Source of the DNA: Lachnospiraceae bacterium UBA3774
Lineage (GTDB): Bacteria; Bacillota; Clostridia; Lachnospirales; Lachnospiraceae
Length of the DNA: 61,300 bases
Direction: 5' to 3'
Assembly (NCBI GenBank): GCA_002369255.1
Contig: DFFO01000104.1
Span: 1 to 61,300 of the forward strand
The translations under genes and the position numbers were made by a program. The notes under the pieces were generated by a model, which made no database searches, was not told the origin of the DNA, and was given only the letters and a program-made list of their open reading frames with translations. Each line of letters begins with the position of its first letter. Position 1 is the first letter of the stretch. Positions 4,652 to 57,643 of this stretch are shown in pieces.

Positions 4652-4686
4652 CCTCCGGCATGCCTTCACGGGTGTCGGAGGTTTTT
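4652..4686 (+). terminator. rho-independent terminator
   Basis: Stem CCTCCGGCA/TGTCGGAGG (one G-T wobble) followed by TTTTT, 36 nt after the stop codon. Confidence 0.7.
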
Positions 4687-4817
4687 CTTAAAGCTCTTTG
4701 AATGTGTGTGATGTTGTTTGATTTTGTTTCTATCACATTTTTGGTATTTAAAATATAATTCAGATAAGAGGATTAAATTTGATAAAAGCGTTCAATTGTT
4801 TTTTTAGGAGAAAATGC

Positions 4818-7800
4818 ATGAAAAAATTGCTATCCCTGCTGCTGGCCGCTGTCATGGTCACAAGCACAATATCATTTGTCGGTACCGATGGTGCGGTGTA
4901 TGCGGACGACGAAATAACCCTGACATACGGTACGGATGTCCCGGCGTTTACCACGACTGCCATTCAGTATTCGGCAGACCCGTATGACTGCGGACAAGGT
5001 CACGGACAGATACTTTTTGATACGTCCGCAGACAGCTATATAAACGCGGAAATCGATTCATATAGGAATACCCTTGCCGGAAACGGCTTTTCAATACGCG
5101 GCTCCGAGAGCAATATCGGTCTGGACGCGGACGGCGATCCCGCAGGAAACAGATTTTTTACGTATTACAAGGAAAATGCGGGCGGCGGATATACTGTGGT
5201 TCACTGCAATTACTTTGCGGCTCTGGATCAGTTCCGTATTATTTACGGCGTTGAGAGCTACCTTGGAGCGTCGGCTCCCGTAACGGGCTATACCGCAGTC
5301 AAGGAGCCTTCGATGTCTATCATCGGAATGAGCGACAGTCTGGAATGTCTTGTTGTTCAGCTTGCAGACGGCAGCTTTATCATTATTGACGGCGGAAAAG
5401 CCTGGAATGAAGAAAGAACTGTCAGCTATACCGACGACAACGGAAACACCCGCACAATGGATTATTATCTTGATTACCGCGCTGACATGGAAGCGCTTTA
5501 TGACTTTCTTGACACAAACAAACCTCAAGGCGAGTCAAAACCGCAGATCACGTGGATGATCACTCACGTTGACGGAGACCATATCTGCCTTCCGTACAAG
5601 TTTATGGAATCCTCGTTCGGAAGGCTTGTAGACGTAAATACTGTCATTTACAACTTCCCGGGCAGCAGCGTTTTGAATTCTCTTGCGGATGCAAATTCCG
5701 GTATGTATGTAAGCAGCTTCATGAATGCTTTTTCGGCAGCTGATCATTTTATTTATCATACCGGAGAAAAATTATATTTGCCCGGCTGTGAAATAGAGTT
5801 TCTTATGACTCATGAGGATTATTGGCCGAATCCTGTGCCGACCGGAAACCATGCCAGCGGCGCATGGAGATTTAACTTTACGGACAGCGGAAAGACGGCA
5901 TATATGCTCGGAGACTGTGAAACAGGCTTAAATGACCAGATGGCGGAGGTTTTCGGATCGTACCTTGACAGCGATATCCTTCAGCCCGCGCATCACGGGT
6001 CAAACGGAGGTACCGTCAAGCTGTACAGCCTTCTGCACCCTTCCGTTATTTTCTGGACATGCGGAGATTTCCCTTTTTACTATGACAACCGTCACACGGG
6101 AACGAATCCGAAATATGCATTTAACGCCATCCTGAGAAACATGGAAGGAGTGACGCACTTTACCAATTCCGCTACTCATACGCTGGATATTGCTACTCTT
6201 ACCGAGGTGCAGAGCGGAGGATCGCTTGTGCACCAGGGAGCATATTCGGGAAGAAAAGGCAACGCGAGAACCTATCTTTCTGATCTGTATGGTACGGAGC
6301 AGATGAAATTTGCCTTCGGAAGCGATGAAACCGCGCCTTTTTCCGCTGACAGCTCATTCCTTGGAGACGGCTCGCAGATATATCCGATATATCTGTGGAA
6401 CAGAACGCATACCGTAAACGTTGTACATCCGACTACTCATCCAAACGGTCGAAGCATTGCCACGTTGGCTGAGGGAAGCACGACTTTTTATGCAGATGAT
6501 ATAGTCCTCGGTTATCAGGGAAAACGCTTTGAAAAAGGGCTCGGAGGTCATTTGACGGACGATAAGGTCTTTACAAACAGAGTTGTTTTCGACATAAGAG
6601 GGGCTGCCGGCGAGAGATTTTACGCGATAGCGGGTCTGACCGGGGATGCGGCCAACCGTCCTTCTACGCAGACAAGCGCGCAAAGCTATGGCGTTACGTT
6701 CAAGGTTTACGGAAGCAAAGCGGACAATTACAGTGATTCCATCAGCTATACGCTGCTTTCAAGCGTTGACGGCGTAGGCGGATACGGCAGCGATTTAAAC
6801 AGCAGTAAAACCTACAACACCGCAGAGTTTGATATTGACGTAAGCGGCTGGAACTTCATAAAGCTCGAAGCAGTCAGCGACGGTTCCGGAGCCGGAGGCT
6901 CCTATGCATGGGGCGACGCTTGCCTTTACAGTAAAAAAACTTCTCAAAGCACGATTTCAAGGCCCGAAAATCTTGAAGGCAAAAATGAGTATGCAGAAGA
7001 TATAGTTTATCTTTCGGATCTTTATTCCACGGAGGCGAAAAAAGACAGCTTCGTTATCGGAGCAAGCAACAATACCGCTGCTCCCAGAGCATATGCCGCA
7101 GATACGAATTTTGAAAGAAAAGTCTACGTATATAAGGGCACGGGAACCGCTACCGGAAACAGAACGGAGGTTTCTGCAAATACTACTCTTAACATTACGG
7201 GCGCGGATGGCAGTATATCTGCCGTGCCGTATTCTCCTTCGGATATAGCTATAGGCTATCGGGGCACGAAGTTTGAAAAGGGGCTCGGAGGTATTGCCTC
7301 GCCGGGCCACTGCAAACCCGCTTCCGTTATATATGATCTGTCCGGACTGGGCGCGGAGCGTTTTTATGCGGTCGGAGGCATTACCGGTAGTGGAAATGCT
7401 AATGATGCAACCAATAACAACAGAAAATTGAGTTTTAACGTTTACGGCAGCAAAACAGGCATGAATGCGTCCGATTTTGAGCTTGTTTCTTACACGTCGA
7501 ACGTATATGCGTATCTTCTGGCGGAATTTGATCTCGATATATCTCAGTACAGATATCTTAAACTCGAGGTCGAATGCGACAATACCACAAACAGCGGAAA
7601 AAGCTTTGCATGGGCTGACGCCTGCGTATACAGGGTCGGAACGCCGCAGGAACCCGAGCATCTCACAAATATCGGCACCTCGGGCGGCTTTGGCGGTCAT
7701 CCTGACGCGGTAAACGTTACGTATCTTTCGGACGTTTACGATACAAATATGGTCGATTCGTTTGTTATCGGAGTAGGAGGAAACGAAGCCGCTCCCCGTG

Positions 7801-9230
7801 AGTTCAAGAAAGATACCAACTGGGACAATATGCTCCTCGTATGGTCGGGAACTGCGAACGGACGATGGCAGATAACGGCCGCAAACAGCCCCAGAACGAT
7901 TTCCGTAAGAAACGAAAACGGCACGACTTCTTCTGTCGTTTATACCAATGATGAGATTGCTTTGGGTTATCGCGGCACAGAATTTGAAAAAGGTCTTGGA
8001 GGACTTGTTTCGCCAAGCACAAATAAGTCCGCATATATCGTATATGACGTAAGGGATCTTGATGCAAAGTATTTTTATTCCGCAGTCGGTCTGACCGGAA
8101 ATGCAAATGCAAACAATACGGGAACTTATCCTTACAAGGTCACGTTTACGCTCTACGGGAGCAAAAACCGGGATTATAACGAAAACAGCGTCTTTATTCC
8201 TCTCGCATATGCGTCGGATATAAGAGCATATTTCGGCGCGGAATTCAATGTTGATATCAGCGGCTACAATTATCTCAAACTCGAAGCGGTAAGCGACGGC
8301 GGGAACAGCGGCGGATCGTTTGCCTGGGGCGGAGCCTGTGTATATGATACAAATGCTGTTATGGACAGAGTTTCGATGACTGCAGGTTCGGATCTTACGC
8401 TGCATATCCATGCGAAGATGTCTGAGGGTACAACCGCCCCCGGCGCGCGTTTTTCCGGAATCGGAGATTCTGTGACGATATCCGGCGTAAAAGACGGAGA
8501 GAGGTGGCGTTTTGATTATCCGGGTGTATATTCTCAATATATGAATGAGGATATCACGGTTGAGCTTCTTGACGATGATTCATCGGTCATTGAAACAAAA
8601 ACATTTTGTACAGCGGCTTATTGCGACAGCATACACGAATTGGGGCAGACCGCAGAGGGTCTTGCCGCATTGGGGCTGTCGGCTGCAAAATTTGCAAAAC
8701 TTGAAACGCTGCTTGCCGATATGCTTGAGTATGGCGCCGCTGCACAAAATTATGCGGCCTACAAGACGGATTCTCTTCCGAACGGAGCCGCATGGGTAGC
8801 CTCTGCAAAAACAAAGAGCTTTACGGCTCCTCAGAGCGCGGCGAGTTCTTCCGTGCGAGGCCGCAAAGATTATATTCGCAGCGCGGCGCTTTATCTTTCA
8901 AAAGATATCAGCTTCATAATAAACGTTTCGGCGTCTCAGGCCACCAAACTTGTAGTCACTGCTTATGGCGGCACCGCCAAAGAGTATCCGCTTTCTTCTG
9001 CTAAAAGAAACGGCAGTGTTTACGTTGTTCTGGGAGAAGGTTTGCCCGCCACGGATTTTGACACGGTTTATACTTTTGCGCTTACAGACGGTAAGACCGT
9101 TTATCACACTGTCACATACAGCGTTAATTCCTATGTAGCGTCAAAACACGGAAGTGACGATGCGCTGCTTGCGGCGGTGGTAAAGGCGCTCTACAATTAC
9201 GGAGTATCCGCTGACAATTACAATGACTGA
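4818..9230 (+). CDS. secreted ComEC-type MBL-fold module fused to three NPCBM-like modules and the shared C-terminal domain
   Basis: Start moved to ATG 4818, which lies 7 nt after AGGAG. Signal peptide is MKKLLSLLLAAVMVTSTISFVG. The N-terminal ~420 aa are collinear with lipoprotein 19268-21016 (QLADGSFIIIDGG, ITWMITHVDGDHI, QPAHHGSNGG, FWTCGDFPFY). Three NPCBM-like repeats follow, then the C-terminal domain. Confidence 0.75.
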   Translation: MKKLLSLLLAAVMVTSTISFVGTDGAVYADDEITLTYGTDVPAFTTTAIQYSADPYDCGQGHGQILFDTSADSYINAEIDSYRNTLAGNGFSIRGSESNIGLDADGDPAGNRFFTYYKENAGGGYTVVHCNYFAALDQFRIIYGVESYLGASAPVTGYTAVKEPSMSIIGMSDSLECLVVQLADGSFIIIDGGKAWNEERTVSYTDDNGNTRTMDYYLDYRADMEALYDFLDTNKPQGESKPQITWMITHVDGDHICLPYKFMESSFGRLVDVNTVIYNFPGSSVLNSLADANSGMYVSSFMNAFSAADHFIYHTGEKLYLPGCEIEFLMTHEDYWPNPVPTGNHASGAWRFNFTDSGKTAYMLGDCETGLNDQMAEVFGSYLDSDILQPAHHGSNGGTVKLYSLLHPSVIFWTCGDFPFYYDNRHTGTNPKYAFNAILRNMEGVTHFTNSATHTLDIATLTEVQSGGSLVHQGAYSGRKGNARTYLSDLYGTEQMKFAFGSDETAPFSADSSFLGDGSQIYPIYLWNRTHTVNVVHPTTHPNGRSIATLAEGSTTFYADDIVLGYQGKRFEKGLGGHLTDDKVFTNRVVFDIRGAAGERFYAIAGLTGDAANRPSTQTSAQSYGVTFKVYGSKADNYSDSISYTLLSSVDGVGGYGSDLNSSKTYNTAEFDIDVSGWNFIKLEAVSDGSGAGGSYAWGDACLYSKKTSQSTISRPENLEGKNEYAEDIVYLSDLYSTEAKKDSFVIGASNNTAAPRAYAADTNFERKVYVYKGTGTATGNRTEVSANTTLNITGADGSISAVPYSPSDIAIGYRGTKFEKGLGGIASPGHCKPASVIYDLSGLGAERFYAVGGITGSGNANDATNNNRKLSFNVYGSKTGMNASDFELVSYTSNVYAYLLAEFDLDISQYRYLKLEVECDNTTNSGKSFAWADACVYRVGTPQEPEHLTNIGTSGGFGGHPDAVNVTYLSDVYDTNMVDSFVIGVGGNEAAPREFKKDTNWDNMLLVWSGTANGRWQITAANSPRTISVRNENGTTSSVVYTNDEIALGYRGTEFEKGLGGLVSPSTNKSAYIVYDVRDLDAKYFYSAVGLTGNANANNTGTYPYKVTFTLYGSKNRDYNENSVFIPLAYASDIRAYFGAEFNVDISGYNYLKLEAVSDGGNSGGSFAWGGACVYDTNAVMDRVSMTAGSDLTLHIHAKMSEGTTAPGARFSGIGDSVTISGVKDGERWRFDYPGVYSQYMNEDITVELLDDDSSVIETKTFCTAAYCDSIHELGQTAEGLAALGLSAAKFAKLETLLADMLEYGAAAQNYAAYKTDSLPNGAAWVASAKTKSFTAPQSAASSSVRGRKDYIRSAALYLSKDISFIINVSASQATKLVVTAYGGTAKEYPLSSAKRNGSVYVVLGEGLPATDFDTVYTFALTDGKTVYHTVTYSVNSYVASKHGSDDALLAAVVKALYNYGVSADNYND
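5082..6200 (+). other. ComEC/COG2333-type metallo-beta-lactamase-fold module (domain within CDS 4818-9230)
   Basis: Motifs IIDGG, H-V-D-G-D-H (HxDxDH rather than the canonical HxHxDH) and AHHGS. This is the pattern I associate with the ComEC C-terminal MBL family. Confidence 0.55.
8361..9227 (+). other. shared ~290-aa C-terminal domain, copy 2
   Basis: MDRVSMTAGSDLTLHI...LLADMLEYGAAAQNY...TVTYSVNSYVASK...VKALYNYGVSADNYND. Confidence 0.6.
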
Positions 9231-9919: not shown

Positions 9920-12900
9920 TTAGCTTTGTTCTTCTTCGTCTTTCTTACTGCGTTTCTTTCCGGCGATTATAAAAGCTGTAACGCCACCGCCGATAAGTGC
10001 GATACTGCCGGCTGCAATGGCAATAATCGTTCCCGTTCCGAGAGAAGAACCGCTTTCCTGAGCAGCTGCTGTATCATCCACAGTTGTTACTTCCGCATCC
10101 TTGGTTTTGTCCGGTCTTTCGGGCTTGGGAAGATTAAGCGGACCCTCGGTAGAGTAGAAGCTGGCTCCGGCCCAGGCGCAGGCACTTGAATCATGAGCTG
10201 TGCCGCCGCAAACGACCGCAAGCTTGAGGATCTTTACGCCGGTGATATCAACATCGATAAATTCGCCGGACATCTTCTTTGTAAGGTTTTCGGACTCGCC
10301 GATCTTTACAAAGACTCCGTCGCCGTAATCAGCATAAATGCGGTAAATAACGCCCTGAGATTTGCCGGCTTTGCCGTTTGAGTTCGTGATACCAAGCGCT
10401 GAATAGAAGCGGTTTGCTCCAAGCTCGCTGATATCGTAAAGAGTCCAGGACTCAATGCTGTAATCTACGGGAAGAGCCGGGTTCTTCGGGTGCATGCCGA
10501 GTCCTTCGAAGAAGAGCGCTTCCTGCTCGCCGATACAGATAACGTCCTCGGGTTTTCCGTAAGGGTGATCTATAGTACTGGGCTGTCCGTAAGGATAAGT
10601 AGCGTTTGTGGTGTTGGACGAATCCAGATATGCAAGCTGAGTGATAAATACGCTGTTCTTGTCATATTCAAACGGCAGACCCTGGTAGAAACCGTCTTTT
10701 GAAGGATAATAGTTGTCGGTCGGCTGAGCCTTCGGAGGGATCTGCGGGCCGATGTGATTTGTATGAATATTTACCGAGCCTTTTTCGTCGTATTTGTAGA
10801 CGCAGGCATTTGCCCAGAAGACCGCGCTCGAAGCATGAGTGGAAGTCGCGCTTACAACAGCGAGCTTCAAGTATTTCGCATCGGAAATATCCAGGTCGAA
10901 TTCACCCGACATATAGCCCAGAATAATATCTGACTGTCCGATGAGCTTATAGCTGCCGTTTCCTTTGTAATCAGCGTAAACGCGGAAGATGGTACCCTTT
11001 GAATTGCCGTTTTTACCCTTTGTGTTGGTAAGTCCGAGGGCGGAGTAGAAACGGTTAACATCCAGATTTCTAAGGTCGTAAATCGTATAAGACTCTATTG
11101 AACCGTTTATCGGCTGCTTGGGATTCTTCGGATGCATACCAAGTCCTGTGTAGAAGAACTGGTTGTTTTTGCCTATTCTTGCGATCGCTGCCAGCGAACC
11201 GTAAGGATGGTTATAGTTTGTGGGCTGTCCTTTGGGATACTTGTCATTGGTAGTATTGGAAGAGCCCTTGTTGTCCATCTTTGAGAGGAACTGTACGGAG
11301 TTTTCAGCAGCCTTTAAGTTCTCGGTATAATCTCCCTTGCTTGCCTTGTAATTGAGCAGATAGTTCAAAGTGGAGTTGTTGGTGTGTATCTTGACAGAAC
11401 CGCTCTTTTGATATTTGTAAACGCAGGCGTTGCCCCATACAGAGCCGCAGGAGATATTGCTTCCGGTGGCGAATACCATGAGCTTGAGCTTTTTAACGCC
11501 TGTGATATCAACGTCAAATTCACCGGTTTTTGTCTTTGATATATTATCGGACTCGGCAAGTGGAATAAAATTGCCGTCGCCGTAATCCGCATAAACACGG
11601 AAGTAGATCGGCTCGCTCTTGCCCTTCTTGGCGTTTTCGTTGGTAAGACCTACTACTGCATAGAAACGGTCTACCTTCATCTTTGAAAGATCATAGGTGG
11701 TCCAGGATCCTTTTGTATTGGCTGCGGGCTTCGGATGAACACCGAGACCCTTCTTGATCTTCTGGGCCTTTTTGCCGATGATGATATTGCCGATTTCGCC
11801 GTACGGATGATCAAGGGTTGTGGCCTTGCCCTTCGGGAAGTCTTTATTTGTGGTATTTGAAGCATCGGTGTACTTCATATCCGAGAGGAATTTTACCGAT
11901 CCCTTCGCCGCGTTGACGTGGGTAGTATAATTGCCGCTCTTGTTGGGAGTATAGGTTCCCGGAAGAATGATTTTGTTTCCGGAGAAGGACTCGCCGTTTT
12001 TGTCATACTTGAATACACAGGCGTTCGCCCAGGCGGAACCTGAAGAATAATGGTTCTCTCCGGGAGCAATGATCTCGAGTCGGAGCTGTTTTGCTCCGGT
12101 AATGTCTACGAGGAATTCGCCGCTCTTTTTCATGGTGATGACATTAGACTGTGCAAGCAGCTTTGAAGAACCGTCTGCATAATCGCCGTAAACGCGGAAG
12201 ACAACTCCCCTGGAGGCGCCTTCCTTGCCCTTGCTGCTTGTAAGACCTACTGCTGCATAGAAGCGGTCCACGTTCATTTTGGAAAGGTCATACGTGGTAG
12301 ACGCAACATACTGCGCGCTCAGAGCTTCGGGATGAACGCCGAGGCCGACTGAAAACGCGGTATCTTTTTCACCGATCTTAAAGACTCCGCTGGTAGTGCC
12401 GTAAGGATAGTTCTTGGTAGTGGGCTTTCCGCCGTTGTTGATGGAATCTGTGTAATCGATATTTGAAAGGTACTTGATCGATCCCTTCTTGACGCCCTTG
12501 GCTCCGCTGTAATTGCCGTTTGATGAGGCGGTATATTTTCCGGGAAGGTTCGGTGCGTATTTGTTTGTTATAACTCCTCCGGAAACGGATTCCGAATAAT
12601 ACTGAGGAACCGGATCCTGTTTGAAGGTGTAGGTTACGTTATTTGTCGTTCCCTTAGCATATATGGGAAGCTTTACGGTATCTTTCCAGCCGTTGCTTTC
12701 ACTGAGACGGAATACGTAATCATCAGCCTTGTTTCCGATGTAAGCGCGGACGTTTACGTAATCGGGACGGTGCTTCATAAGATCGTTGTTATCGTTCCAG
12801 ACTACGGAGATATCATAATCTTTTTTGGGAAGATACGTAAGAGTTGCAATGCCGCCCTCTATCGAAACTTCGTATTCTTCGGGAAGTCCTTCGAATTCGA

Positions 12901-15310
12901 CGGTATAATCGGCTTCGGGTCCGCAGACTCCGGTGGATTTGTAAACACACGCATTTGCCCAAACGCTCGCGCTTGACCAGTTGTTTGTGCCTGCGGGATA
13001 AACAGCGAGTTTGAGTTTCTTGACGCCGCTGATGCCCACGTCAAATTCGCCGCTGTCTTTTTTCACGATCTTGTCAGACTCGGCAAGGAGCACATAGCTT
13101 CCGTCGCCGTAATCTCCGAATACGCGGAAGATAACGCCCTGCGAATTGCCGGCTTTACCGTTCGCGTTTGTAATACCTACTGCGGCATAGAAGCGGTCCG
13201 CGCCAAGAGAACTGATATCATAGGTGGTCCAGGATTCGCCTCCGGAAATGGAGGGGGCTTCCGGATGGACGCCGATTCCTCTGGTGAATTTTGTATTGTT
13301 TTCACCGATGATAAAGGAATCCGACGAGCTGCCGCCGTAGGGATAATTTACCGTGGAAGCGGCTCCCTTGATATTTGAGGATTCTATATAGGTAAGAGAA
13401 GAAAGCTGGGTAAGATTGGCATTTCCTGCGACGTCAGCCGCTCCGTTAAACGAACCGTCGCCCGCACGATACGCGCCGGTCGAAGTGGAATAAAGATCGG
13501 TCCACGTATAAGACCAGTCGTTGCCGGCACTTATTTCTTCGGCGGCTCCGAGGTTCTTACCGTCTTTTTTGAGCTGAACTTTAAGGCTGTCGGGGCGAAT
13601 GCCGGGCTCGTTGTCCGAATCGTCCCAGACTGCTTTGAGAGAATAGTCAATAAGCTGGCGGTAGGTACAGATGATGATGCGCCTGCCGCTGTAAACTGCC
13701 GCATAGTCGCTGGGAAGATCGGAGACCTTGGCAGTATAATTAACAATTGAGAGATCTGTTTCGCTTTTGTGCTTTGGAAGATCGGTCCAGGTGTAAGACC
13801 AGTTGTTTTCCGAACTGAGTACTGCAGAAAGACCGGTATCGGTATCGTCCGCAAAAAGCTGAACGTTCAGCGATGAAGGGCGGGAGGAAACGGTCTCGTC
13901 TACCCAGAGAACGTCAGTAGTGTATGAAACCTTCTGCTCGGCAGGATTGTAGGTACAGGTCGCCTTTATGACCTCACCGTCTGCAGAAACAGAATAGTAT
14001 TCGGGTTCCTCGGTCACAGCTACGCTGTAATTGATAGGAGTAGTCTGCCCGGTCTTGCGCGCGGGAAGAGACGTCCAGGTATATACCCAGCCGTCAGAAG
14101 CGTAAACTGAAACAGGGCTGCCGTAGGCTTCGCCGTCAGCATAAAGCTGCAGCTCGAGAGAAGAAGGGCGAACGCCGTAAACGTCATTTTTGTCGCTCCA
14201 GTTTACGGAAACCGTAAAGTCTGTGTCATAAACGAACTTATTTGTCAGGATTCCGTCTGAATAAGCGGCTTTGTAGTTCGGAACCGAAGCGGTTACGCCG
14301 TATGTTACTTCCTCACCTGCCGCATTGTACTTGGGAACGGAACTCCAGGTGTATGAAAAGTTGTTTTCCGCATTTAAGGTAACGGGGGCGCCTGTTTTAT
14401 TTCCGTCTGCTGTCAGATAAGCCAAAAACGAACTTGGACGGTAGCTTTCATTTCCCGCGTCGTCCCACACGGTCTGTACGGAAAAAGTCGAGCGCTCCGT
14501 TTTGTACAGACAGGCGTCTGCCCAGACAAAGGTTCCGCTGCTGTTTCCGCCGTCGCTGACCGTTTCAAGCTTCAAATATTTGTAATCGCGGATATCTACG
14601 TTGAACTCGGCCGTCAGGTAAGCTCTGATGCCCGTAGCATATGAAAGAAGCTCGAAATCGCTGTCGTCCGTGCCGTCCTTGCTGCCGTATACGTTGAAGG
14701 TAAGCTTGTAAGTATATGGCGAAACAGCCGGATTGACGTTTGACTGTCCGGTAATACCTACAACGGAATAGAAATATTCCATATCGAGTCCCTGCAGATC
14801 ATACACGACGGACGCGGGCTTCTTGTTGCTTGCAGAAACAAGCGCAGCCAGGCCCTTTGCATATTTGGTGCCGCGGTATCCTATGGCTATGTCGCCACGG
14901 TTGTAAACCACGTTGCTCGTAGTACCGTCGGCAGCTTTGATCTGAAGAGTTCTCGGACTGTTGGATGCGTTTACGGCTTTTCTGGAAGCGCCGCCGTCCT
15001 GGCTGACGCCCGTCCACACGAAAACGGTGTTGTCCCAGTTTGTGTCGAGCTTGAAATCACGGGGCTTTGTTTCACTCGAACCCGTACCGATGACAAAGCT
15101 TGATACTTTCTTTTCGGTGCCGTACAGGTCGGAAAGATAGGTGACGCTTTCCGAAAGCACATGAGCGTCCTTGCCTTTCGGAGCTCCGGAAGCTCCGATG
15201 TTTGAAACGGGAGCCGCCTGCGCAAAGACTGTGTCCGCAGCCGGTACGAACAGCGTGACTGTCATAACGACCGAAAGCACAAGACACAACGTTCTTTTCA
15301 TTATATTCAT
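9920..15310 (-). CDS. giant membrane-anchored surface protein (1796 aa) with six NPCBM-like modules and five CnaB-like repeats
   Basis: AGGAGG RBS and signal peptide MNIMKRTLCLVLSVVMTVTLFVPAADTVFA. Six modules are marked by [DEN][RY]F[Y][AS].[VL]G[IL]T and [VI][FY]RV[FY][GA]DY. Five repeats match V.W.D..N....RP....V.L..DG......L....W.Y.W..LP, the Cna B-type pattern. The C-terminus is a hydrophobic helix IIAIAAGSIALIGGGVTAFIIAG followed by KKRSKKDEEEQS. Confidence 0.8.
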   Translation of the reverse strand: MNIMKRTLCLVLSVVMTVTLFVPAADTVFAQAAPVSNIGASGAPKGKDAHVLSESVTYLSDLYGTEKKVSSFVIGTGSSETKPRDFKLDTNWDNTVFVWTGVSQDGGASRKAVNASNSPRTLQIKAADGTTSNVVYNRGDIAIGYRGTKYAKGLAALVSASNKKPASVVYDLQGLDMEYFYSVVGITGQSNVNPAVSPYTYKLTFNVYGSKDGTDDSDFELLSYATGIRAYLTAEFNVDIRDYKYLKLETVSDGGNSSGTFVWADACLYKTERSTFSVQTVWDDAGNESYRPSSFLAYLTADGNKTGAPVTLNAENNFSYTWSSVPKYNAAGEEVTYGVTASVPNYKAAYSDGILTNKFVYDTDFTVSVNWSDKNDVYGVRPSSLELQLYADGEAYGSPVSVYASDGWVYTWTSLPARKTGQTTPINYSVAVTEEPEYYSVSADGEVIKATCTYNPAEQKVSYTTDVLWVDETVSSRPSSLNVQLFADDTDTGLSAVLSSENNWSYTWTDLPKHKSETDLSIVNYTAKVSDLPSDYAAVYSGRRIIICTYRQLIDYSLKAVWDDSDNEPGIRPDSLKVQLKKDGKNLGAAEEISAGNDWSYTWTDLYSTSTGAYRAGDGSFNGAADVAGNANLTQLSSLTYIESSNIKGAASTVNYPYGGSSSDSFIIGENNTKFTRGIGVHPEAPSISGGESWTTYDISSLGADRFYAAVGITNANGKAGNSQGVIFRVFGDYGDGSYVLLAESDKIVKKDSGEFDVGISGVKKLKLAVYPAGTNNWSSASVWANACVYKSTGVCGPEADYTVEFEGLPEEYEVSIEGGIATLTYLPKKDYDISVVWNDNNDLMKHRPDYVNVRAYIGNKADDYVFRLSESNGWKDTVKLPIYAKGTTNNVTYTFKQDPVPQYYSESVSGGVITNKYAPNLPGKYTASSNGNYSGAKGVKKGSIKYLSNIDYTDSINNGGKPTTKNYPYGTTSGVFKIGEKDTAFSVGLGVHPEALSAQYVASTTYDLSKMNVDRFYAAVGLTSSKGKEGASRGVVFRVYGDYADGSSKLLAQSNVITMKKSGEFLVDITGAKQLRLEIIAPGENHYSSGSAWANACVFKYDKNGESFSGNKIILPGTYTPNKSGNYTTHVNAAKGSVKFLSDMKYTDASNTTNKDFPKGKATTLDHPYGEIGNIIIGKKAQKIKKGLGVHPKPAANTKGSWTTYDLSKMKVDRFYAVVGLTNENAKKGKSEPIYFRVYADYGDGNFIPLAESDNISKTKTGEFDVDITGVKKLKLMVFATGSNISCGSVWGNACVYKYQKSGSVKIHTNNSTLNYLLNYKASKGDYTENLKAAENSVQFLSKMDNKGSSNTTNDKYPKGQPTNYNHPYGSLAAIARIGKNNQFFYTGLGMHPKNPKQPINGSIESYTIYDLRNLDVNRFYSALGLTNTKGKNGNSKGTIFRVYADYKGNGSYKLIGQSDIILGYMSGEFDLDISDAKYLKLAVVSATSTHASSAVFWANACVYKYDEKGSVNIHTNHIGPQIPPKAQPTDNYYPSKDGFYQGLPFEYDKNSVFITQLAYLDSSNTTNATYPYGQPSTIDHPYGKPEDVICIGEQEALFFEGLGMHPKNPALPVDYSIESWTLYDISELGANRFYSALGITNSNGKAGKSQGVIYRIYADYGDGVFVKIGESENLTKKMSGEFIDVDITGVKILKLAVVCGGTAHDSSACAWAGASFYSTEGPLNLPKPERPDKTKDAEVTTVDDTAAAQESGSSLGTGTIIAIAAGSIALIGGGVTAFIIAGKKRSKKDEEEQS
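13477..14488 (-). other. block of four tandem CnaB-like repeats inside CDS 9920-15310
   Basis: Roughly aa 275-612, for example TVWDDAGNESYRPSSFLAYLTADG...FSYTWSSVPKY and AVWDDSDNEPGIRPDSLKVQLKKDG...WSYTWTDL. Confidence 0.55.
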
Positions 15311-47227: not shown

Positions 47228-47923
47228 GTGCTGGATTTTCATACTCATATACTTCCGGAAATTGATGACGGAAGCGCGTCCGTTAAGCAGAGTGAGGAAA
47301 TGCTCACTATGCTCAGCGGGCAACATGTTGATAAGATTGTTTTTACGCCGCACTTCTATGCGGAAGATGAAACTCCGGAATCATTTTTCCGCAGGCGTGA
47401 CGAGTCCTACCAAAAGATTCTTCCTTTGCTGAAGGAAAAGTTTGGGGATATTGATTTCAGACTGTCGGCGGAGGTCTGTTATTATATTGGAGTTTCCGCT
47501 CTTGAAAACATCGAACGTTTTTGCGTCGAGAAGACGCCCCTTTTTCTGCTGGAAATGCCAAGATGCAGATGGGACGCGGGAATGCTCTCTGAAATCACGT
47601 CTCTTGCCAGGCAGGAAAAAGTCATTGTAGTTCTGGTACATATTGACAGATACTTTGACTTCAATCCGTTAAAGACCTTTGAGGATCTTTCGCAAGAAGG
47701 CGTGCTCATGCAGGTTAATTGCGATTATCTTGCAAACAAAAAAAATAAGCGCCGTATCCGAAAGCTTTTTCGCAGAGGAATAATGAATTTTATCGGGACC
47801 GACTGTCATAACACTGACGATAGAAAACCAAACTACAAAGAAGCAGTGTTAAATCTTCAGAAATTGTTTGATGACGAGGCTTTCGGTATCCTTGGCTTTT
47901 ATGAAGAAGAGTTTTTTGATTAA
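47228..47923 (+). CDS. CpsB/CapC-type PHP-domain protein-tyrosine phosphatase
   Basis: GTG start. The N-terminal MLDFHTHILPEIDDG is the CpsB hallmark. Also contains GTDCHN. Confidence 0.8.
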   Translation: MLDFHTHILPEIDDGSASVKQSEEMLTMLSGQHVDKIVFTPHFYAEDETPESFFRRRDESYQKILPLLKEKFGDIDFRLSAEVCYYIGVSALENIERFCVEKTPLFLLEMPRCRWDAGMLSEITSLARQEKVIVVLVHIDRYFDFNPLKTFEDLSQEGVLMQVNCDYLANKKNKRRIRKLFRRGIMNFIGTDCHNTDDRKPNYKEAVLNLQKLFDDEAFGILGFYEEEFFD

Positions 47924-48674
47924 AATAATAACCGCCGTTAGTCTTGCAATATTTGCTGTTTGTATTATAATATTATTTTTACAAAGCAAAGGATGCGGCG
48001 AAAGTGAGGGATACGAGGAAACTGTAGTTTATCCTTCGCTGCAGGAGTCTTCTTCCGAAACGGAGACGACGGATGAAGATATACCGTATGCAAGTCCCAT
48101 TGACTGGGAAGAACTTTGGCAAAAGAATACAGATATATATTCGTGGCTGTATATTCCCGGCACCGAGATCAGCTATCCGGTCGTGCAGAGCGATACGGAT
48201 GATACGTTTTATCTGACTCATGACGCCTACAAAAAAGAATACAAGGGCGGCTCCATTATGTCGGAGCACAGATATACCTCGAAAACCTTTGAAGATCCGG
48301 TCACGATATTATACGGTCATAAGATGAGATCCGGAGCTATGCTCGGAACTCTTCAGCCGACATATTCGGATGAAAAAAGCTTCAAGGAGCATCAGGAGAT
48401 AATTATTTATCTTCCGGACAAAGAGCTTCATTATCGTATATGGGCGACGACTCCATATGACAATTCTCATATTATGGCAAAATATGATTTTACAAACGGC
48501 CGGCATGTTCAGCTGTTTATAAATGAAATAAAAAGTATTCGCTCCATTGAGGGGCAACTTGACGAGACGATGGACGTTAATCTTAACGACAGATTTTTGG
48601 TGCTGAGCACCTGTCTTATGGGAAAGGTTAAGAACCGTTATCTCGTTATAGCGCGGCTTGAAGCCGTAGATTGA
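47901..48674 (+). CDS. srtB: class B sortase
   Basis: N-terminal TM anchor. TDIYSWLYIPGTEISYPVVQSDTDDTFYLTHD, YGH, catalytic-Cys region LVLSTC, and Arg in NRYLVIARL. Overlaps the upstream gene by 23 nt. Confidence 0.8.
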   Translation: MKKSFLIKIITAVSLAIFAVCIIILFLQSKGCGESEGYEETVVYPSLQESSSETETTDEDIPYASPIDWEELWQKNTDIYSWLYIPGTEISYPVVQSDTDDTFYLTHDAYKKEYKGGSIMSEHRYTSKTFEDPVTILYGHKMRSGAMLGTLQPTYSDEKSFKEHQEIIIYLPDKELHYRIWATTPYDNSHIMAKYDFTNGRHVQLFINEIKSIRSIEGQLDETMDVNLNDRFLVLSTCLMGKVKNRYLVIARLEAVD

Positions 48675-52530: not shown

Positions 52531-53022
52531 GTGATTGCCCGCTTTTTAAGCTGTATGGACGAGATATTAAAGGAACAGTCAAATATCGATCGCGGTGTGG
52601 ACGAGTGGGTGGCCCGGATAAAACAGGGGGTTGCCGCGGAGCTGATCGTACATCCGAAGGGAACAAGCATGCTGCCTCTTATTCGCGGCGGAAAAGACAG
52701 CGTTATAGTATTGCCTCTCGACAGACCGCTTAAAAAAGGGGATGTTATTCTTTTTCGCAGACATGACGGCAAAAACGTAATGCACCGGGTCTTAAAGCTT
52801 GACGGTGAGATGGTCACTACGTTCGGAGACGGAAGCGTACGCCCGGACGATCCGATCAAAAAAGAGGCTGTCCTCGGTCTTGCGGTAATGCTTCTTAAAG
52901 ACGGCAAGACAAAGAAACTTGATACCGCGCTTTCGCGCCTGTACGGAAGGATCCACCAAAGACTGTTCCCGGTCAGAAGGATTGCCGGCAGTTTTAAAAG
53001 AAAAATCAAGTCATTTCTTTAA
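52531..53022 (+). CDS. S24/S26-like serine peptidase-fold protein
   Basis: GTSMLPLI (GxSMxP catalytic-Ser motif) and GDVILFRR...MHRVLKLDG. The start (GTG 52531 or ATG 52555) is uncertain. Confidence 0.5.
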   Translation: MIARFLSCMDEILKEQSNIDRGVDEWVARIKQGVAAELIVHPKGTSMLPLIRGGKDSVIVLPLDRPLKKGDVILFRRHDGKNVMHRVLKLDGEMVTTFGDGSVRPDDPIKKEAVLGLAVMLLKDGKTKKLDTALSRLYGRIHQRLFPVRRIAGSFKRKIKSFL

Positions 53023-53237
53023 TAATCTAATCAGTTTCATGAAAAAAATTTCATTTCAGAAAATGTTATGTTTTTTATGAAGGAATATTATATTTTTTTG
53101 CATAAAATATTGAATTATTTCATTACAGTGATAAAATCATTAAATAGAGACAGTATCATTTTTTGGATAAAAAGCCGTGTTGCGGAAAGTCATTCCGTTT
53201 CCCGGCGCGAGAATTACATAGGGAGAATACAGCCATT

Positions 53238-56200
53238 ATGAAAAAATTAAGAAAACTTTTCGCTATGCTGGTTTCATTTGCGATGGTTATCGGCACGCTG
53301 ACGGTGACGGCAGTGGCACAGGAATATCCGGTTTATATCGGTGATACCGGATATGACACCATCCAGGACGCTGTTGCTGCGCTCAGCAGCGACGGTCAGA
53401 CCATCAGAGTGAGCGAGGCATTTACCGACACGGGCTCTTCTCAGGCGCTCACCGGAACGAATTATTCCTTTACCGTTGACCTTGGCGGAAAGACCTTTAC
53501 GGGAGCCAGAGCATTTGCTCCTACCGGAGTAACGGTCACGCTTAAAAACGGAACCATAACTTCTACCAATAATACTGCCGGATGCGCAGTTCGTGCTACA
53601 AGCGGAGCTGTAGTAACCCTCGGGGAAGGGCTTCTTATTACAGGCTGCTCAAGCTCAAACAGCTACGGCTGCATACAGGGTTCGGCATCCACTATTACTG
53701 TTGACGGAGCGGTTCTTGAGAACTCGCTGAACACTTCAAACAATGCGAGAACTATCTATCTCGGAAGCAACAGTACGCTCAATATTGTATCAGGTACCGT
53801 TAAGATCACCGCATATGCATATCAGGGCACGATAAACGTCAGCGGAGGCTTTGTCGGAGCGAACATGCTCACTAAAGCCTCAGGCGGAAACATCGTTGTT
53901 ACCGGCGGCTATTTCGGTGCAAATCCTTCCGGACATTATTCATCTGCTTACGAGTGGGTTGAAGATAATACCTACGAGGGATATGCCGGTTATATCAGAG
54001 AAAAATCGGTAGTAACGAACGTTGCGGAAATAACAGATACCGGAGTGCAGTATGCAGCGATCGAAAATGCCATCGCGGCTCTTTCTGCAGACGGCCAGAC
54101 TATAAAACTGCTTAATACTTTTGATACGGCGACTGATATCACTATTGCTTCCGCTCCTTACGCGTTCACGCTTGACCTTGGAGGCTTTGTGCTTACAGGA
54201 GAGGCAAACGGCAGCAGCTCGGCGATTTCCGTAACAGGATCCACCGTAACAATAGTAAACGGAACAATAAATGTTAACAAAGGCAATGCAAACCGTGCAG
54301 GCGTAAGCCCCGGAGCAAATGCAAAAGTCACTCTCGGAAGCGGGCTTACGATAAACGGCACAAGCACCAAGAGCAACGGCTACGGAATCACGGGTACCGG
54401 AGCTGCTACGGCAGAGCTTACGGTAGACGGCGCGGTGATTAACGGAGTTGATTCTCAGTCTCGCAGCGTTTATGTTGCCAACGGAGGAAAACTCAATATC
54501 AATTCCGGATATATAAACGGAGATATATACACTTACAACGGAACTACTATTATCACGGACGGCTATTTCCTGGGCTCCGTTACCAGAGGAGGCTCCGGCA
54601 ACGTGACCGCATCCGGCGGATACTATGGCAACAACAGCGTAGCTGCGATGGTTGCTGCAGGATATGAGCTTGCGGATAACGATACCGATTCTGCTGAGGA
54701 TTATCCTTACTGCATAAAAGTTGAAGTTATCGAAGGTACGCCTACGGCTACGGTTTGTGTAAACGGCGGTGAGGCAGTTGACTACAAGTCCATCGACGCG
54801 GCTCTCGCAGACGCGGTAAGCGCCGGAGCGGCTACAGTAGTTATTACGTTAAATGAAGACGCCACTGCAAGCGGCGGAACCTCATCGAGCCAGTATATAT
54901 TCGGAAGCGGAGCTGATATCACGCTTAATCTCGGCGGAAATACTCTGACAAGAGACAACGCGACCGGAGTAAGACTGTTCAGACTCAACGACGGCGCAAA
55001 GATGACCATTACCGGCGGAACCGTTCAAGGAAACGGAACCGCATATATTGCCGCAAACGGAGCATTTGCTTACGTAAACGAGGGAAGTACCCTTACTCTG
55101 AACGGCACCACGATCTCCGGCTTTAAGGCGGGAACCAATGCTTCCGGCACGCAGAGAAGCTCGGGAGCGATTCACGTTGTTAATAACGGCAGTGTTCTTA
55201 ATATGATAAGTTCCGTTATCACCGGATGCAGCGCAGACGACAAGGGCGGAGCAGTTACGGTTGCTTCGACCTGTACTTTGAATATGGACGCGAGCAGCCG
55301 CATTACGGATTGTACCGCCAAATACGGCGGAGCCGTTTATATTGATTCCAATGCAGACACCCACGCAAGCGGAACTGCAAATATCAATGGAACGATCGAG
55401 AACTGCGCTTCGACCGACGAAAGCAGCGCAGCGCCTGTTTACAGCAACGGATTTGCGTTTATAAATGAAGTGCTGACCACGAGCGGAATCGTATATCAGT
55501 CTCGCAGCGCGGCTAAGATCTTCAGCGCAGGACTTGTTCTTGAAAGCGATTTCACATTTAATATTACAGCGCTTGCAGCTCTTGCTGAGGAAGATGCTTC
55601 TGCCGCTCCAAAGCTTGCTGCTGTTTTTGAAGGAACAAAATCCCTGATTGAGGGAACTGCTTCAGGCGGCGGATATTACAATTATACGTATCCCGGAATT
55701 ACCGCAAACAAGCTTGCGGATCAGATCAGTTTTTCAGTTACTCTTTCGGGAGATACCGATATTTCCGCAACGAAAGATTATTCGGTAGTTGAGTACTGCA
55801 ACGATCTTTATGCCGCAGATCCTGACAATTCAGTCCAGAATACGCTTCTTGCAAATACGCTCAAATACGGCAGCGAAGTTCAGAAGTACTGGGGCGAGGG
55901 GACGGCATTTGAAGTACCGGAAAACATTGCCGCATATATTCTGAACGACAAGCCTACTGCCGCGCAGAATGCCAAAAAGACATCTCTGGCGCCGGTTGAT
56001 TTGAGTAATTACAAGATCAAGGCCGCGTCTTTGAATATCAACGACAAAGCGAGAATATTCTTCAATATATTCTCGACGGATCAGAATGCTACAGTATCCG
56101 TCACAAAGAACGGCAGCCAGGTAGGTACGTTCGTTGTTTCCGAACTGATCACTACAAGTGAAAGTTCGGTTTACAGATTGGAACTTGACAGAATCACAGC

Positions 56201-56381
56201 TTTAGAGTATGATAATGTCTTCAGTGTAACATTGTATAATGGTGACGGACAAGCCATGCATGCTGTTGAGTACAGCGTAAACTCTTACTGCTACGCAAAA
56301 CAAAACAGTATTTCGGTAGGTGACGTTGCGCTTGCCATTTACAGATACGGGGTTGCGGCAGAGGCATATGCCGCCGCATAA
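53238..56381 (+). CDS. secreted beta-helix-like repeat protein carrying the shared C-terminal domain
   Basis: Start at ATG 53238 (MKKLRKLFAMLVSFAMVIGTLTVTAVA). There are three ~230-aa repeats, each opening with ...DAVAALSSDGQTI... / ...NAIAALSADGQTI... / ...AALADAVSAGAATVV... and containing the [LF]T[VL][DN]LGG... pattern (FTVDLGG / FTLDLGG / ITLNLGG). The repeats are Gly/Thr/Asn-rich, as in parallel beta-helix adhesins. Confidence 0.7.
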   Translation: MKKLRKLFAMLVSFAMVIGTLTVTAVAQEYPVYIGDTGYDTIQDAVAALSSDGQTIRVSEAFTDTGSSQALTGTNYSFTVDLGGKTFTGARAFAPTGVTVTLKNGTITSTNNTAGCAVRATSGAVVTLGEGLLITGCSSSNSYGCIQGSASTITVDGAVLENSLNTSNNARTIYLGSNSTLNIVSGTVKITAYAYQGTINVSGGFVGANMLTKASGGNIVVTGGYFGANPSGHYSSAYEWVEDNTYEGYAGYIREKSVVTNVAEITDTGVQYAAIENAIAALSADGQTIKLLNTFDTATDITIASAPYAFTLDLGGFVLTGEANGSSSAISVTGSTVTIVNGTINVNKGNANRAGVSPGANAKVTLGSGLTINGTSTKSNGYGITGTGAATAELTVDGAVINGVDSQSRSVYVANGGKLNINSGYINGDIYTYNGTTIITDGYFLGSVTRGGSGNVTASGGYYGNNSVAAMVAAGYELADNDTDSAEDYPYCIKVEVIEGTPTATVCVNGGEAVDYKSIDAALADAVSAGAATVVITLNEDATASGGTSSSQYIFGSGADITLNLGGNTLTRDNATGVRLFRLNDGAKMTITGGTVQGNGTAYIAANGAFAYVNEGSTLTLNGTTISGFKAGTNASGTQRSSGAIHVVNNGSVLNMISSVITGCSADDKGGAVTVASTCTLNMDASSRITDCTAKYGGAVYIDSNADTHASGTANINGTIENCASTDESSAAPVYSNGFAFINEVLTTSGIVYQSRSAAKIFSAGLVLESDFTFNITALAALAEEDASAAPKLAAVFEGTKSLIEGTASGGGYYNYTYPGITANKLADQISFSVTLSGDTDISATKDYSVVEYCNDLYAADPDNSVQNTLLANTLKYGSEVQKYWGEGTAFEVPENIAAYILNDKPTAAQNAKKTSLAPVDLSNYKIKAASLNINDKARIFFNIFSTDQNATVSVTKNGSQVGTFVVSELITTSESSVYRLELDRITALEYDNVFSVTLYNGDGQAMHAVEYSVNSYCYAKQNSISVGDVALAIYRYGVAAEAYAAA
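55506..56378 (+). other. shared ~290-aa C-terminal domain, copy 3 (divergent)
   Basis: ...DYSVVEYCNDLY...LLANTLKYGSEVQKY...AVEYSVNSYCYAKQ...ALAIYRYGVAAEAYAAA. The landmark order is the same as in 3747-4613 and 8361-9227. Confidence 0.5.
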
Positions 56382-56406
56382 ATGAGGGTGAAGAAAGGAT
56401 TTACAA

Positions 56407-56517
56407 ATGAAACACATGTACGAAACCCCCTCCTGCGATGTTGAAATGATTGAAACGGGAAATGTTGTGCTTGACAGCAACACCATTGATCTCCCGGAAG
56501 ATGATTTCAACGACTGA
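56407..56517 (+). CDS. unannotated micro-ORF A (36 aa, acidic)
   Basis: MKHMYETPSCDVEMIETGNVVLDSNTIDLPEDDFND. AAAGGA lies 9 nt upstream of the ATG, 26 nt after the stop of 53238-56381. It is a paralog of micro-ORF B. It falls below the 60-aa ORF-track cutoff. Confidence 0.5.
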   Translation: MKHMYETPSCDVEMIETGNVVLDSNTIDLPEDDFND

Positions 56518-56550
56518 GCATTTTAGGAACTGAGAATTTTTAAATAACTA

Positions 56551-56584
56551 CGGATATTGCGGCCGATCATTGCCGCAATATCCG
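56551..56584 (+). other. perfect 13-bp stem-loop (possible terminator or RNA-stability element)
   Basis: CGGATATTGCGGC-cgatcatt-GCCGCAATATCCG. There is no clear U-tract after it (CAGAGTTTG). Confidence 0.4.
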
Positions 56585-56688
56585 CAGAGTTTGCGGTGAT
56601 TACAGATCAACGTTGTTTTTCTTTGTGCAAAAAACATACGCTGGCGTCTAAGGCTGCATATTTGCCTTTCTAAATATATTCTTTAAGC

Positions 56689-56717
56689 TTGACATAATTC
56701 ATGCCTTGGATTATTAT
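56689..56717 (+). promoter_or_regulatory. near-consensus sigma-A promoter upstream of micro-ORF B
   Basis: TTGACA (56689-56694), 17-nt spacer, TATTAT (56712-56717), 80 nt upstream of ATG 56797. Confidence 0.6.
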
Positions 56718-56796
56718 GATAAATACCATAACGATTTTTTCGCGCGGGTCGGATTTTTGCCGGGCCGTGCCGGTCTGTTGATATAGGGGGAATAAA

Positions 56797-56928
56797 ATGA
56801 GAAAGCTATACACATCTCCTGTAGGAACATTTGAGGTTATCGAGTCAGAAGACGTACTGCTTGAGAGTATCGATCTTCCGCCGGATGAATTTGACGCTAC
56901 GGCTCCTTCAAATTCTACTGAACCGTAA
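56797..56928 (+). CDS. unannotated micro-ORF B (43 aa, acidic)
   Basis: MRKLYTSPVGTFEVIESEDVLLESIDLPPDEFDATAPSNSTEP. AGGGGGA RBS 6 nt upstream. It has its own promoter and its own terminator. Confidence 0.6.
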   Translation: MRKLYTSPVGTFEVIESEDVLLESIDLPPDEFDATAPSNSTEP

Positions 56929-56948
56929 ATGTTCGGGTATTAAAAGAG

Positions 56949-56972
56949 GGCGGCGTTTTACGCCGCCTTTTT
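56949..56972 (+). terminator. rho-independent terminator
   Basis: GGCGGCG-tttta-CGCCGCC followed by TTTTT, 21 nt after the micro-ORF B stop. Confidence 0.8.
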
Positions 56973-57097: not shown

Positions 57098-57643
57098 ATG
57101 AGCAGACACAGCAGAAAGAAAACGGTTTTCACCGCGCTTGCATTATCCGTGATCTTTTCTCTCGGATTTGTTTTTGCCGGCTGCGGCGACGAGGAAGAAA
57201 CTACAGCGGCGGCTGAAGAATCATCTACTACGTCGCAATCCGTTGAGGATCAGTCAGCGGAGCTTACGCTTCCGGAGGATGTTTTTGACGATTTCTCCGT
57301 AATAGATGCGGCAAAGCAGAACATAGACAGACTTGAGGAGCTCCAAAAAGACGGAATTACAGACGACGAAAGAGAAGAATACGAAAAAACCGCAGACAAT
57401 CTTGCAAAGCAGATACCTGCGCTTAAAGAAGTGATAGACTCCGGAAAAGACAAAGGCAGCATTGACACTGATAAATTAAAAGAAATAGTGGATAACACAC
57501 CTGAAACGCCGGCCAGCGGTCAGGGAGAAACCCCTGCTGAAAGCGCGGGCGGCTCTTCAGAATCCGAATCGCAGGATATGCAGGAGCCCACGCTGCCTTA
57601 CAAAGGGGAGCCGATCGAACTTCCTACTATTGTATTCGACTAA
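57098..57643 (+). CDS. acidic lipoprotein, function unknown
   Basis: AGGAGG RBS and lipobox VFAGCG. The mature part is rich in Asp, Glu, Thr and Ser. Confidence 0.6.
   Translation: MSRHSRKKTVFTALALSVIFSLGFVFAGCGDEEETTAAAEESSTTSQSVEDQSAELTLPEDVFDDFSVIDAAKQNIDRLEELQKDGITDDEREEYEKTADNLAKQIPALKEVIDSGKDKGSIDTDKLKEIVDNTPETPASGQGETPAESAGGSSESESQDMQEPTLPYKGEPIELPTIVFD

Follow-up and report, generated by a model that had tools for sequence, protein, structure and literature searches.

A 61,300-nucleotide stretch of Lachnospiraceae bacterium UBA3774 (contig DFFO01000104.1 of assembly GCA_002369255.1, positions 1 to 61,300 of the forward strand; hereafter the window) carries two short paralogous open reading frames (ORFs), A and B, which are almost certainly real, expressed, protein-coding micro-genes. 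They belong to a family of small acidic peptides from ruminant-gut bacteria. At seven of the 12 distinct loci the peptide gene lies directly downstream of a gene for a protein that ends in the same ~300-residue domain, and the second half of the peptide contains a short linear motif, LPxDxF, that is also found in a neighboring lipoprotein. We tentatively suggest that the peptides are putative cytoplasmic partners, or motif mimics, of neighboring surface proteins.

Genes A and B and their transcripts

The two genes and their signals are as follows:

56393 to 56398 (+): ribosome-binding site of A, AAAGGA, 8 nt 5' of the ATG, read from the sequence
56407 to 56517 (+), stop included: micro-protein A, 36 aa (MKHMYETPSCDVEMIETGNVVLDSNTIDLPEDDFND), from ORF and translation, a family hidden Markov model (HMM) match at E 1.9e-26 and RNA contigs
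56548 to 56587 (+): perfect 13-16 bp hairpin 3' of A, with no U-tract after it on the + strand
56689 to 56717 (+): promoter of B, TTGACA-17 nt-TATTAT, 11 of 12 matches
56785 to 56791 (+): ribosome-binding site of B, AGGGGGA, 5 nt 5' of the ATG, read from the sequence
56797 to 56928 (+), stop included: micro-protein B, 43 aa (MRKLYTSPVGTFEVIESEDVLLESIDLPPDEFDATAPSNSTEP), from ORF and translation, RNA contigs and gene callers
56949 to 56967 (+): intrinsic terminator of B, GGCGGCG-TTTTA-CGCCGCC + TTTTTAT, terminator-like on both strands

Both ORFs agree letter for letter with those proposed as paralogs in a first-pass annotation of the window, and with 15 identities over 35 residues (BLASTP E 7e-9) their paralogy is confirmed. 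The ATG of each is the earliest possible start 3' of an in-frame stop, and B is predicted by gene callers on 13 metagenome contigs. A six-frame HMM scan of the window with an A+B profile found no third copy. The peptides are acidic and lack a signal peptide, as had been noted: at pH 7, A has a net charge of about -9.4 and B one of about -8.5, the isoelectric point (pI) is about 4, and neither N-terminus is hydrophobic.

Transcription of both genes is indicated by RNA contigs, which are assemblies of independent ruminant-gut (rumen) metatranscriptomes; they are strandless and show transcription, not translation. Three of them (56128-56611, 56231-56595 and 56276-56533) span A together with the 3' end of the upstream gene for a large secreted repeat protein, here called the exoprotein. 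The longest of these supports expression of A with the exoprotein gene, whose stop codon (56379-56381) leaves a gap of 25 nt to the start of A, rather than the 26 nt first given. The hairpin 3' of A is likely a terminator or 3'-end stabilizer, because RNA contigs stop in or just past it, at 56595 and 56611. The description of B as a self-contained transcription unit also holds: in addition to its promoter, ribosome-binding site and terminator, two RNA contigs cover B alone (56752-56931 and 56730-56885), and the 5' end of one of them (X28), at 56730, lies 13 nt past the -10 box of the promoter.

Other RNA contigs (56424-56790, from runs X25 and X26) cover the entire spacer between A and B and depart from the window at 56790. 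Read-through of a terminator, variation between strains and carry-over of DNA are all possible causes. An Rfam scan gave sub-threshold matches only. One of these, to Clostridiales-2 RNA at 56341-56401, scores 22 bits where the gathering score is 58.6; it overlaps both the end of the exoprotein gene and the ribosome-binding site of A and is probably due to chance.

Evidence for coding

In-frame homologs of A and B, whose presence in related genomes had been proposed as a check on their coding nature, were found in other species, with reading frame, start and stop kept. Purifying selection, the second check, is evident from the substitution pattern. At locus L018 the two peptide genes (L018a and L018b) encode proteins identical at 45 of 47 residues while differing at 24 nucleotides, 19 of which are third codon positions; the rates of synonymous (dS) and non-synonymous (dN) substitution are 1.34 and 0.05, a dN/dS of 0.04. 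Further support is provided by the syntenic loci L010 and L015, where the ORF has diverged by 9.3% and the flanking intergenic spacers by 27%, leaving the ORF as a conserved island amid diverged spacers. For B against distant relatives with unsaturated dS, dN/dS is 0.14-0.37; when every pair in the family for which dS is defined is counted, the values lie between 0.04 and 0.55. When all six frames of the window and loci were scanned with a regular expression for either the N-terminal pattern or the motif, essentially only family members were retrieved, plus one lipoprotein for the motif.

Variation among strains (97.6% identity) is too small for a direct selection test on A or B. Between the strain groups (the window versus L001, 97.6% identical DNA), A differs only at 56437 and 56504, both changes being non-synonymous (D11N and D33A). 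In B all three differences are synonymous; they are not an independent test, because the contigs were chosen for an identical B.

Distribution of the family

The family comprises about 19 distinct sequences, the relatives being 36-52 aa long. An exhaustive HMMER search of 1.84 billion representatives with the A+B profile identified five further small peptides (39-54 aa) of the same pattern, a search with a seven-sequence profile raised the total to 17, and six-frame scans of fetched loci added four copies. One product of the exhaustive search, a 1836-aa repeat protein (P0004), was rejected as spurious, as its repeats match positions 8-29 only. All members come from Logan or ENA ruminant-gut assemblies or from a single goat-rumen Lachnospiraceae metagenome-assembled genome (MAG), RGIG3649, which is the only genome with copies among 185,579 species-representative GTDB genomes. 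The scan of these genomes returned two loci, both in this MAG, which has three copies in all.

No family member in the protein collection has a name or an NCBI or UniRef accession, and Pfam, NCBIfam and PADLOC scans of A and B gave nothing significant. Homolog searches by word index, whether B was used alone or together with A, returned only A and B, and two scans of Joint Genome Institute (JGI) metagenomes gave 0 matches and 1 near-identical match. There are no relatives in IMG/VR or in plasmid and phage collections, and therefore nothing points to a mobile element. Literature searches with motif strings found nothing on this family, and only the leader of the thiopeptide precursor PbtA surfaced.

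Anatomy of the peptides

Alignment of the family resolves two modules. The N-terminal module, of ~24 residues, reads M-[KR]-K-x-Y-x-x-P-x-x-E-x-x-[IL]-x-x-[ED]-[DN]-V-[LI]-[LIT]-x-S, with Tyr5, Pro8, Val20 and Ser24 invariant or nearly so. It is joined by a variable linker of 0-15 residues to the second module, the short linear motif [IV]-D-L-P-x-D-[ED]-F, after which most members have a tail of 2-11 residues, usually ending in Glu-Pro or Trp-Pro. Each peptide contains 0-1 cysteine, and the pI is near 4 in every member except P0018. AlphaFold2 modeling of B with a 15-sequence alignment gave no secondary structure (pLDDT, the predicted local distance difference test, 71). The peptides are predicted to be intrinsically disordered, as would suit a peptide that needs a partner in order to fold. 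No RNA or DNA motif is common to the 160-nt upstream regions of six free-standing copies.

Two distant members, P0018 and an ORF at 2098-2226 of locus L022, retain the N-terminal module with the remainder changed. The L022 ORF is a divergent paralog (MKYEKPQMELVVLEAVEIITISGENEAKDDAGTPKVTVPDTW) located 39 nt past a GDPD phosphodiesterase gene; that gene in turn comes after a standard family member. The N-terminal module may thus mark out a superfamily wider than the family described here. The L018 peptides alone carry a 15-residue insert rich in Thr, Ser and Glu. Given the ATP-grasp, PIG-L and family 2 glycosyltransferase (GT2) genes inserted beside the L018 copies, the peptides of this lineage may be modified.

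Linkage to a shared C-terminal domain

The genes around A and B that bear on their role are:

52531 to 53022 (+): soluble SipW/ER-type signal-peptidase-like protein, upstream of the exoprotein gene; syntenic at L020 6018-6464
53238 to 56381 (+): exoprotein, a large secreted repeat protein with a signal peptide, 1072 aa for the longest ORF
57098 to 57643 (+): acidic, largely low-complexity lipoprotein, lipobox FAGC; syntenic at L018 7787-8302 and L020 15368-15940
57671 to 58174 (+): single-pass membrane protein with a Lys-rich tail, always 3' of the lipoprotein (window, L018 and L020)

The exoprotein, called a beta-helix protein in the first-pass annotation, probably starts at ATG 53238, the longest ORF beginning at TTG 53163; a relative at L010 matches Pfam Beta_helix and Big_2. 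Its C-terminal ~300 residues (55389-56378, residues ~743-1072 of the 53163-56381 product) form a domain that is common to the exoproteins and ends in '...YSVNSYCYAKQ...YRYGVAAEAY'. Three window proteins carry this domain, all on the + strand, at 55389-56378, 3693-4613 and 8316-9227. The region resembles a pair of tandem units, each made of a beta-sandwich and then a 'YSV..YC...L..L.YG.aa..Y' helix, and has no match in Pfam or the PDB; a search of PDB sequences with the exoprotein likewise returned none. Foldseek matches of a model of the domain to MHC class II chains (TM ~0.2, root-mean-square deviation ~19 Å) were discarded as meaningless.

We tallied the position of the peptide gene at the 12 distinct loci. 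In seven (window A, L018a, L020-1, L020-2, L022, L025 and L030) it lies 1-25 nt past a gene ending in the C-terminal domain. At L019/L010 it lies 223 nt ahead of the gene for a protein with this domain, and two copies (window B and L018b) stand ahead of the lipoprotein gene. Few proteins of this kind are encoded per genome, and the pattern of linkage cannot be chance. Neighborhood statistics of homologs, another check that had been proposed, thus reveal an arrangement of exoprotein C-terminal domain and peptide that recurs in seven loci.

The order of genes is also conserved beyond the pair. In the window a cps-like module is followed by the peptidase-like protein, exoprotein, A, B, lipoprotein, membrane protein and rpoB. 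The MAG locus L020 is syntenic, with the peptidase-like protein, a first exoprotein, a peptide (1 nt gap), a leucine-rich repeat protein, a second exoprotein, a peptide (15 nt gap), the lipoprotein and the membrane protein. At L018 the order is exoprotein, peptide (19 nt gap), the ATP-grasp/PIG-L/GT2 insert, peptide, lipoprotein and membrane protein; here (1486-7531) near-identical peptide genes bracket two ATPgrasp_ST genes, a PIG-L deacetylase gene, a GT2 gene and a GT-like gene.

A motif shared with a lipoprotein

The lipoprotein encoded downstream of B carries the peptide motif, a feature absent from the first-pass annotation. In the window it has LTLPEDVFDD at 57263-57292 and a conserved C-terminus, TLPYKGEPIELPTIVFD, at 57590-57640. 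Across the lipoprotein orthologs, conservation is confined to one or two LPEDxFDD motifs (LTLPEDVFDD in the window, GFDLPEDVFDD in L020, TLPEDEFDDD and VDLPEDEFDDD in L018) and the C-terminus TLPYxGEPIELPTxxF[DN]. When the window and loci are translated in six frames, the motif pattern matches the peptides and the lipoprotein orthologs only.

At L018 and L020, peptide and lipoprotein of one genome match more closely than those of different genomes. Over 24 residues the L018 peptides align with their own lipoprotein (E 7e-6), spanning the lineage-specific insert of the peptide, although the likeness ahead of the motif sits in low-complexity sequence and is only suggestive. Similarly, the second L020 peptide has GFDLPIDQF and the L020 lipoprotein GFDLPEDVF. 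The L018 peptide and lipoprotein segments are 54-59% identical in nucleotides, and at both loci identical residues often differ in codon; recent gene conversion therefore does not account for why peptide and lipoprotein are alike.

Proposed role of the peptides

The recurrent arrangement at seven loci lends support to one of the roles raised in the first-pass annotation, that of a partner, inhibitor or chaperone of the exoprotein; the role itself we infer. Under our tentative proposal, the peptides would stay in the cytoplasm and act in trans on large Sec-secreted surface proteins bearing the ~300-aa C-terminal domain. The coupled copy, A, would be translated from the exoprotein mRNA as the C-terminal domain emerges from the ribosome, and would bind that domain by strand addition through its N-terminal module and LPxDxF motif. 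The syntenic lipid-anchored protein (57098-57643) would show the same motif on the outside of the cell. Given this extracellular display, we propose that the peptide is a cytoplasmic mimic of, or placeholder for, a site later taken by the lipoprotein, which would hold the surface protein at the membrane. The free-standing copy, B, might serve paralogous surface proteins that have no coupled copy, for example those at 1416-4616 and 4779-9230. A motif of the DLPxDxF kind can be a docking site, because a 13-mer of the PbtA leader, NLNDLPMDVFEMA, is the ligand in a crystal complex with the PbtF RiPP recognition element (RRE; RiPP, a peptide made by the ribosome and modified after translation) (PMC12710340).

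Several observations weigh against this proposal. Because Sec substrates are unfolded as they traverse the membrane, it is not obvious why they would need a partner in the cytoplasm. The C-terminal domain is present in two window NPCBM proteins (1416-4616 and 4779-9230) that have no adjacent peptide gene and, conversely, the peptide genes at L021, L013 and L027 are not beside a gene for a protein with the domain. Divergence of the peptides is only weakly correlated with that of their cognate domains (Mantel r 0.42, p 0.03), a correlation driven by one orthologous pair. B and the window lipoprotein have only the bare motif in common. Finally, the AlphaFold2 model of the domain from three sequences (mean pLDDT 45) is too poor for a groove search.

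Dedicated acidic partners encoded beside a secreted client are known, such as class I type III secretion chaperones and the immunity proteins of colicins and contact-dependent inhibition (CDI) systems. Like these, the peptides are small, acidic, lack a signal peptide and are co-transcribed beside a large secreted protein as a recurring gene pair. They differ in being three- to four-fold smaller and predicted disordered, with no relationship in sequence or fold, and their linear motif is also found in an extracellular lipoprotein. The setting differs as well, since the client here has a Sec signal peptide, the organism is of Gram-positive type and no specialized secretion system is nearby. Type III class I chaperones are folded alpha/beta dimers (~130 aa) and bind their client at its N-terminal region; our peptides have 36-47 aa and no predicted secondary structure, and no secretion-system genes were seen at their loci. 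The resemblance to secretion chaperones is functional only and does not amount to membership in such a family.

A more specific version of this idea, which we regard as unlikely, is that the peptides are part of a new non-covalent surface-display system, found in gut bacteria of Gram-positive type, in which a cytoplasmic placeholder hands over to an extracellular anchor. In such a system the C-terminal domain of large adhesin or glycan-binding proteins would recognize LPxDxF, a disordered lipid-anchored 'tether' lipoprotein would present LPxDxF outside the cell, and a micro-protein from the same mRNA would cap the C-terminal domain until export. Functions that we have not thought of hold the residual probability, about a third.

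Alternative explanations

A different possibility, though a doubtful one, is that the peptides are exported and processed to act as a signal, a competitor or a RiPP-like product. The first 24 residues would then be a leader, cleavage would follow Ser24 and the acidic LPxDxF fragment would be active, possibly released by the SipW-type peptidase at 52531-53022 and possibly competing with the lipoprotein motif outside the cell. Consistent with a leader, no other part of the peptide is as widely conserved as the N-terminal module, which is retained in P0018 and L022 2098-2226, where the C-terminal half differs. Type I signal peptidases follow a -3/-1 rule, and the invariant Ser24, with L, I or T at -3, fits it; the peptidase-like gene is moreover syntenic in the window and L020. 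This peptidase-like protein has a GTSMLP serine motif and GDVILF...MHRV but, judged from the translation by eye, no membrane segment, N-terminal hydrophobic segment or signal peptide, and its match scores are below the NCBIfam and Pfam cut-offs. Against processing to a variable product, the supposed core is highly conserved and common to a lipoprotein, and A and the L018 copies end at the motif or two residues past it, so that no core is left. Likewise, the single cysteine at most per peptide speaks against a modified core. The ATPgrasp_ST, PIG-L and GT2 genes flanked by the two L018 copies could be taken for modification enzymes, yet they fit the surrounding polysaccharide locus equally well.

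The resemblance to known RiPP precursors is limited to short motifs. YxxP is the recognition motif of lasso-peptide leaders, and the peptides start M-K-K-x-Y-x-x-P with invariant Tyr5 and Pro8. Unlike in lasso precursors, the position following the putative leader usually holds Ile (Ile-Asp-Leu-Pro after Ser24) and not Gly, Ala, Ser or Cys. Gly follows Ser24 only in members of the SG type (L018, P0007 and P0018, the last without an acidic residue), and a ring-forming Asp or Glu at positions 7-9 is inconsistent. No lasso cyclase, leader peptidase or RRE genes were found in the neighborhoods. The acidic DLPxDxF(E/D) motif also recalls thiopeptide precursor leaders of the PbtA/TbtA type (NF033400 and TIGR03892), including the RRE-bound fragment of PbtA. 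Three of 15 members match NF033400 (best E 0.0087) and one matches TIGR03892 at E 0.065, far from significant, and A and B match neither model at E<=1; the weak matches probably arise because the PbtA leader bears a similar motif. In contrast to thiopeptide precursors, our peptides have no Cys/Ser/Thr-rich core and their motif is C-terminal, not in an N-terminal leader. Genes for YcaO/cyclodehydratase, dehydratase, pyridine-forming (cycloaddition) enzymes or RREs are lacking in the window and eight other contexts.

More broadly, no exporter, C39 peptidase-transporter, RRE, YcaO, lanthipeptide or lasso enzyme, or receptor was found in about 200 kb of neighborhoods, and the sole radical SAM gene nearby (L019) is HemZ-like. 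This extends to the family the earlier remark that no maturase or exporter gene is adjacent in the window. Of the RiPP or signaling precursor also suggested then, the enzymes, RRE, protease-transporter and receptor are missing from the neighborhoods examined, while the leader-like features keep the idea as a weaker alternative. Double-glycine bacteriocins and quorum-sensing propeptides (AgrD, Phr and SHP) are not indicated either, there being no GG motif or signal peptide and no C39 transporter, AgrB or receptor nearby. Nor do A and B contain the hydrophobic segment expected of arrest peptides (SecM, MifM and VemP). Unlike arrest peptides, whose ORFs stop shortly 5' of the ribosome-binding site of the gene they regulate, B has a strong terminator 170 nt ahead of the next gene, and A is followed by the hairpin and a 280-nt spacer.

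It is very improbable that the exoprotein C-terminal domain is a toxin that the peptide neutralizes, with B as an orphan immunity gene. The position directly past the domain in seven loci is that of an immunity gene of a polymorphic toxin, as are the small size, acidity and lack of a signal peptide, and an extra free-standing copy exists. The upstream domain, however, is neither toxin-like nor co-varying: it has no Pfam, NCBIfam or PDB toxin match, is a conserved tandem-repeat module and not a polymorphic tip, and is also found in the window NPCBM proteins without a peptide gene. In addition, 36-47 disordered residues are very few for an immunity protein, and the motif sharing with the lipoprotein would be left unexplained.

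We give next to no credence to the view that the ORFs arose by chance or are non-coding elements (untranslated 3' or 5' parts of neighbors, or a small RNA): while the B transcript is short and structured (z -3.6) and a sub-threshold Rfam match is present at 56341-56401, the substitution pattern contradicts this explanation, with frame, start and stop conserved, third-position differences dominating (dN/dS 0.04) and the ORF far better conserved than its flanks, and in addition the ribosome-binding sites are strong and the upstream regions have no conserved RNA or DNA motif.

Relation to described systems and significance

Every known family considered fails at least one testable defining feature. 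Viewed as a whole, the peptide family, the way it is coupled to the C-terminal domain and the motif it has in common with a lipoprotein appear to be undescribed; the mechanism we infer. The locus as a whole recalls tapA-sipW-tasA of Bacillus subtilis, in which a SipW-type peptidase is encoded beside secreted matrix proteins. As there, a large secreted surface or matrix protein is encoded in a cell-envelope locus, with an ER/SipW-type peptidase-like gene directly upstream. The likeness ends with the peptidase-like protein, which here lacks a membrane segment and scores below the family cut-offs; TasA and TapA homologs are absent, and tapA-sipW-tasA has no counterpart of the micro-proteins or of the motif-bearing lipoprotein.

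If the family proves to be as it appears, a conserved, selected and expressed class of micro-proteins, unnamed by standard annotation and in no family database, would be tied to the large surface proteins by which rumen fiber- and glycan-associated bacteria meet their surroundings. A motif common to a cytoplasmic peptide and an extracellular lipoprotein suggests that surface proteins may be retained at the cell without LPXTG, SLH or other known anchors. Three small components would be involved, the peptide, the C-terminal domain and the lipoprotein motif, and the family is confined to a narrow, uncultured rumen lineage. Even if the mechanism is another, A and B are a clean case of a functional gene of ~40 codons recognizable from sequence alone.

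Other features of the locus

Adjacency to rpoB was seen only in the window's own species (L002), so the role of regulator mimic, also considered in the first-pass annotation, finds no support. At L020 the genes past the transmembrane protein are on the opposite strand, and the L018 contig ends at this point. Elsewhere in the window, 9920-15310 (-) encodes a protein of 1796 aa that contains five Cna_B stretches, six NPCBM stretches and, at its C-terminus, a membrane anchor, with no obvious LPXTG. The cps-like module that precedes the peptidase-like gene is made up as follows:

45519: Wzz
46373: tyrosine-kinase-like ATPase
47228: CpsB
47868 to 48674 (+): embedded sortase-like gene
49453: LCP
50562: CapD-like

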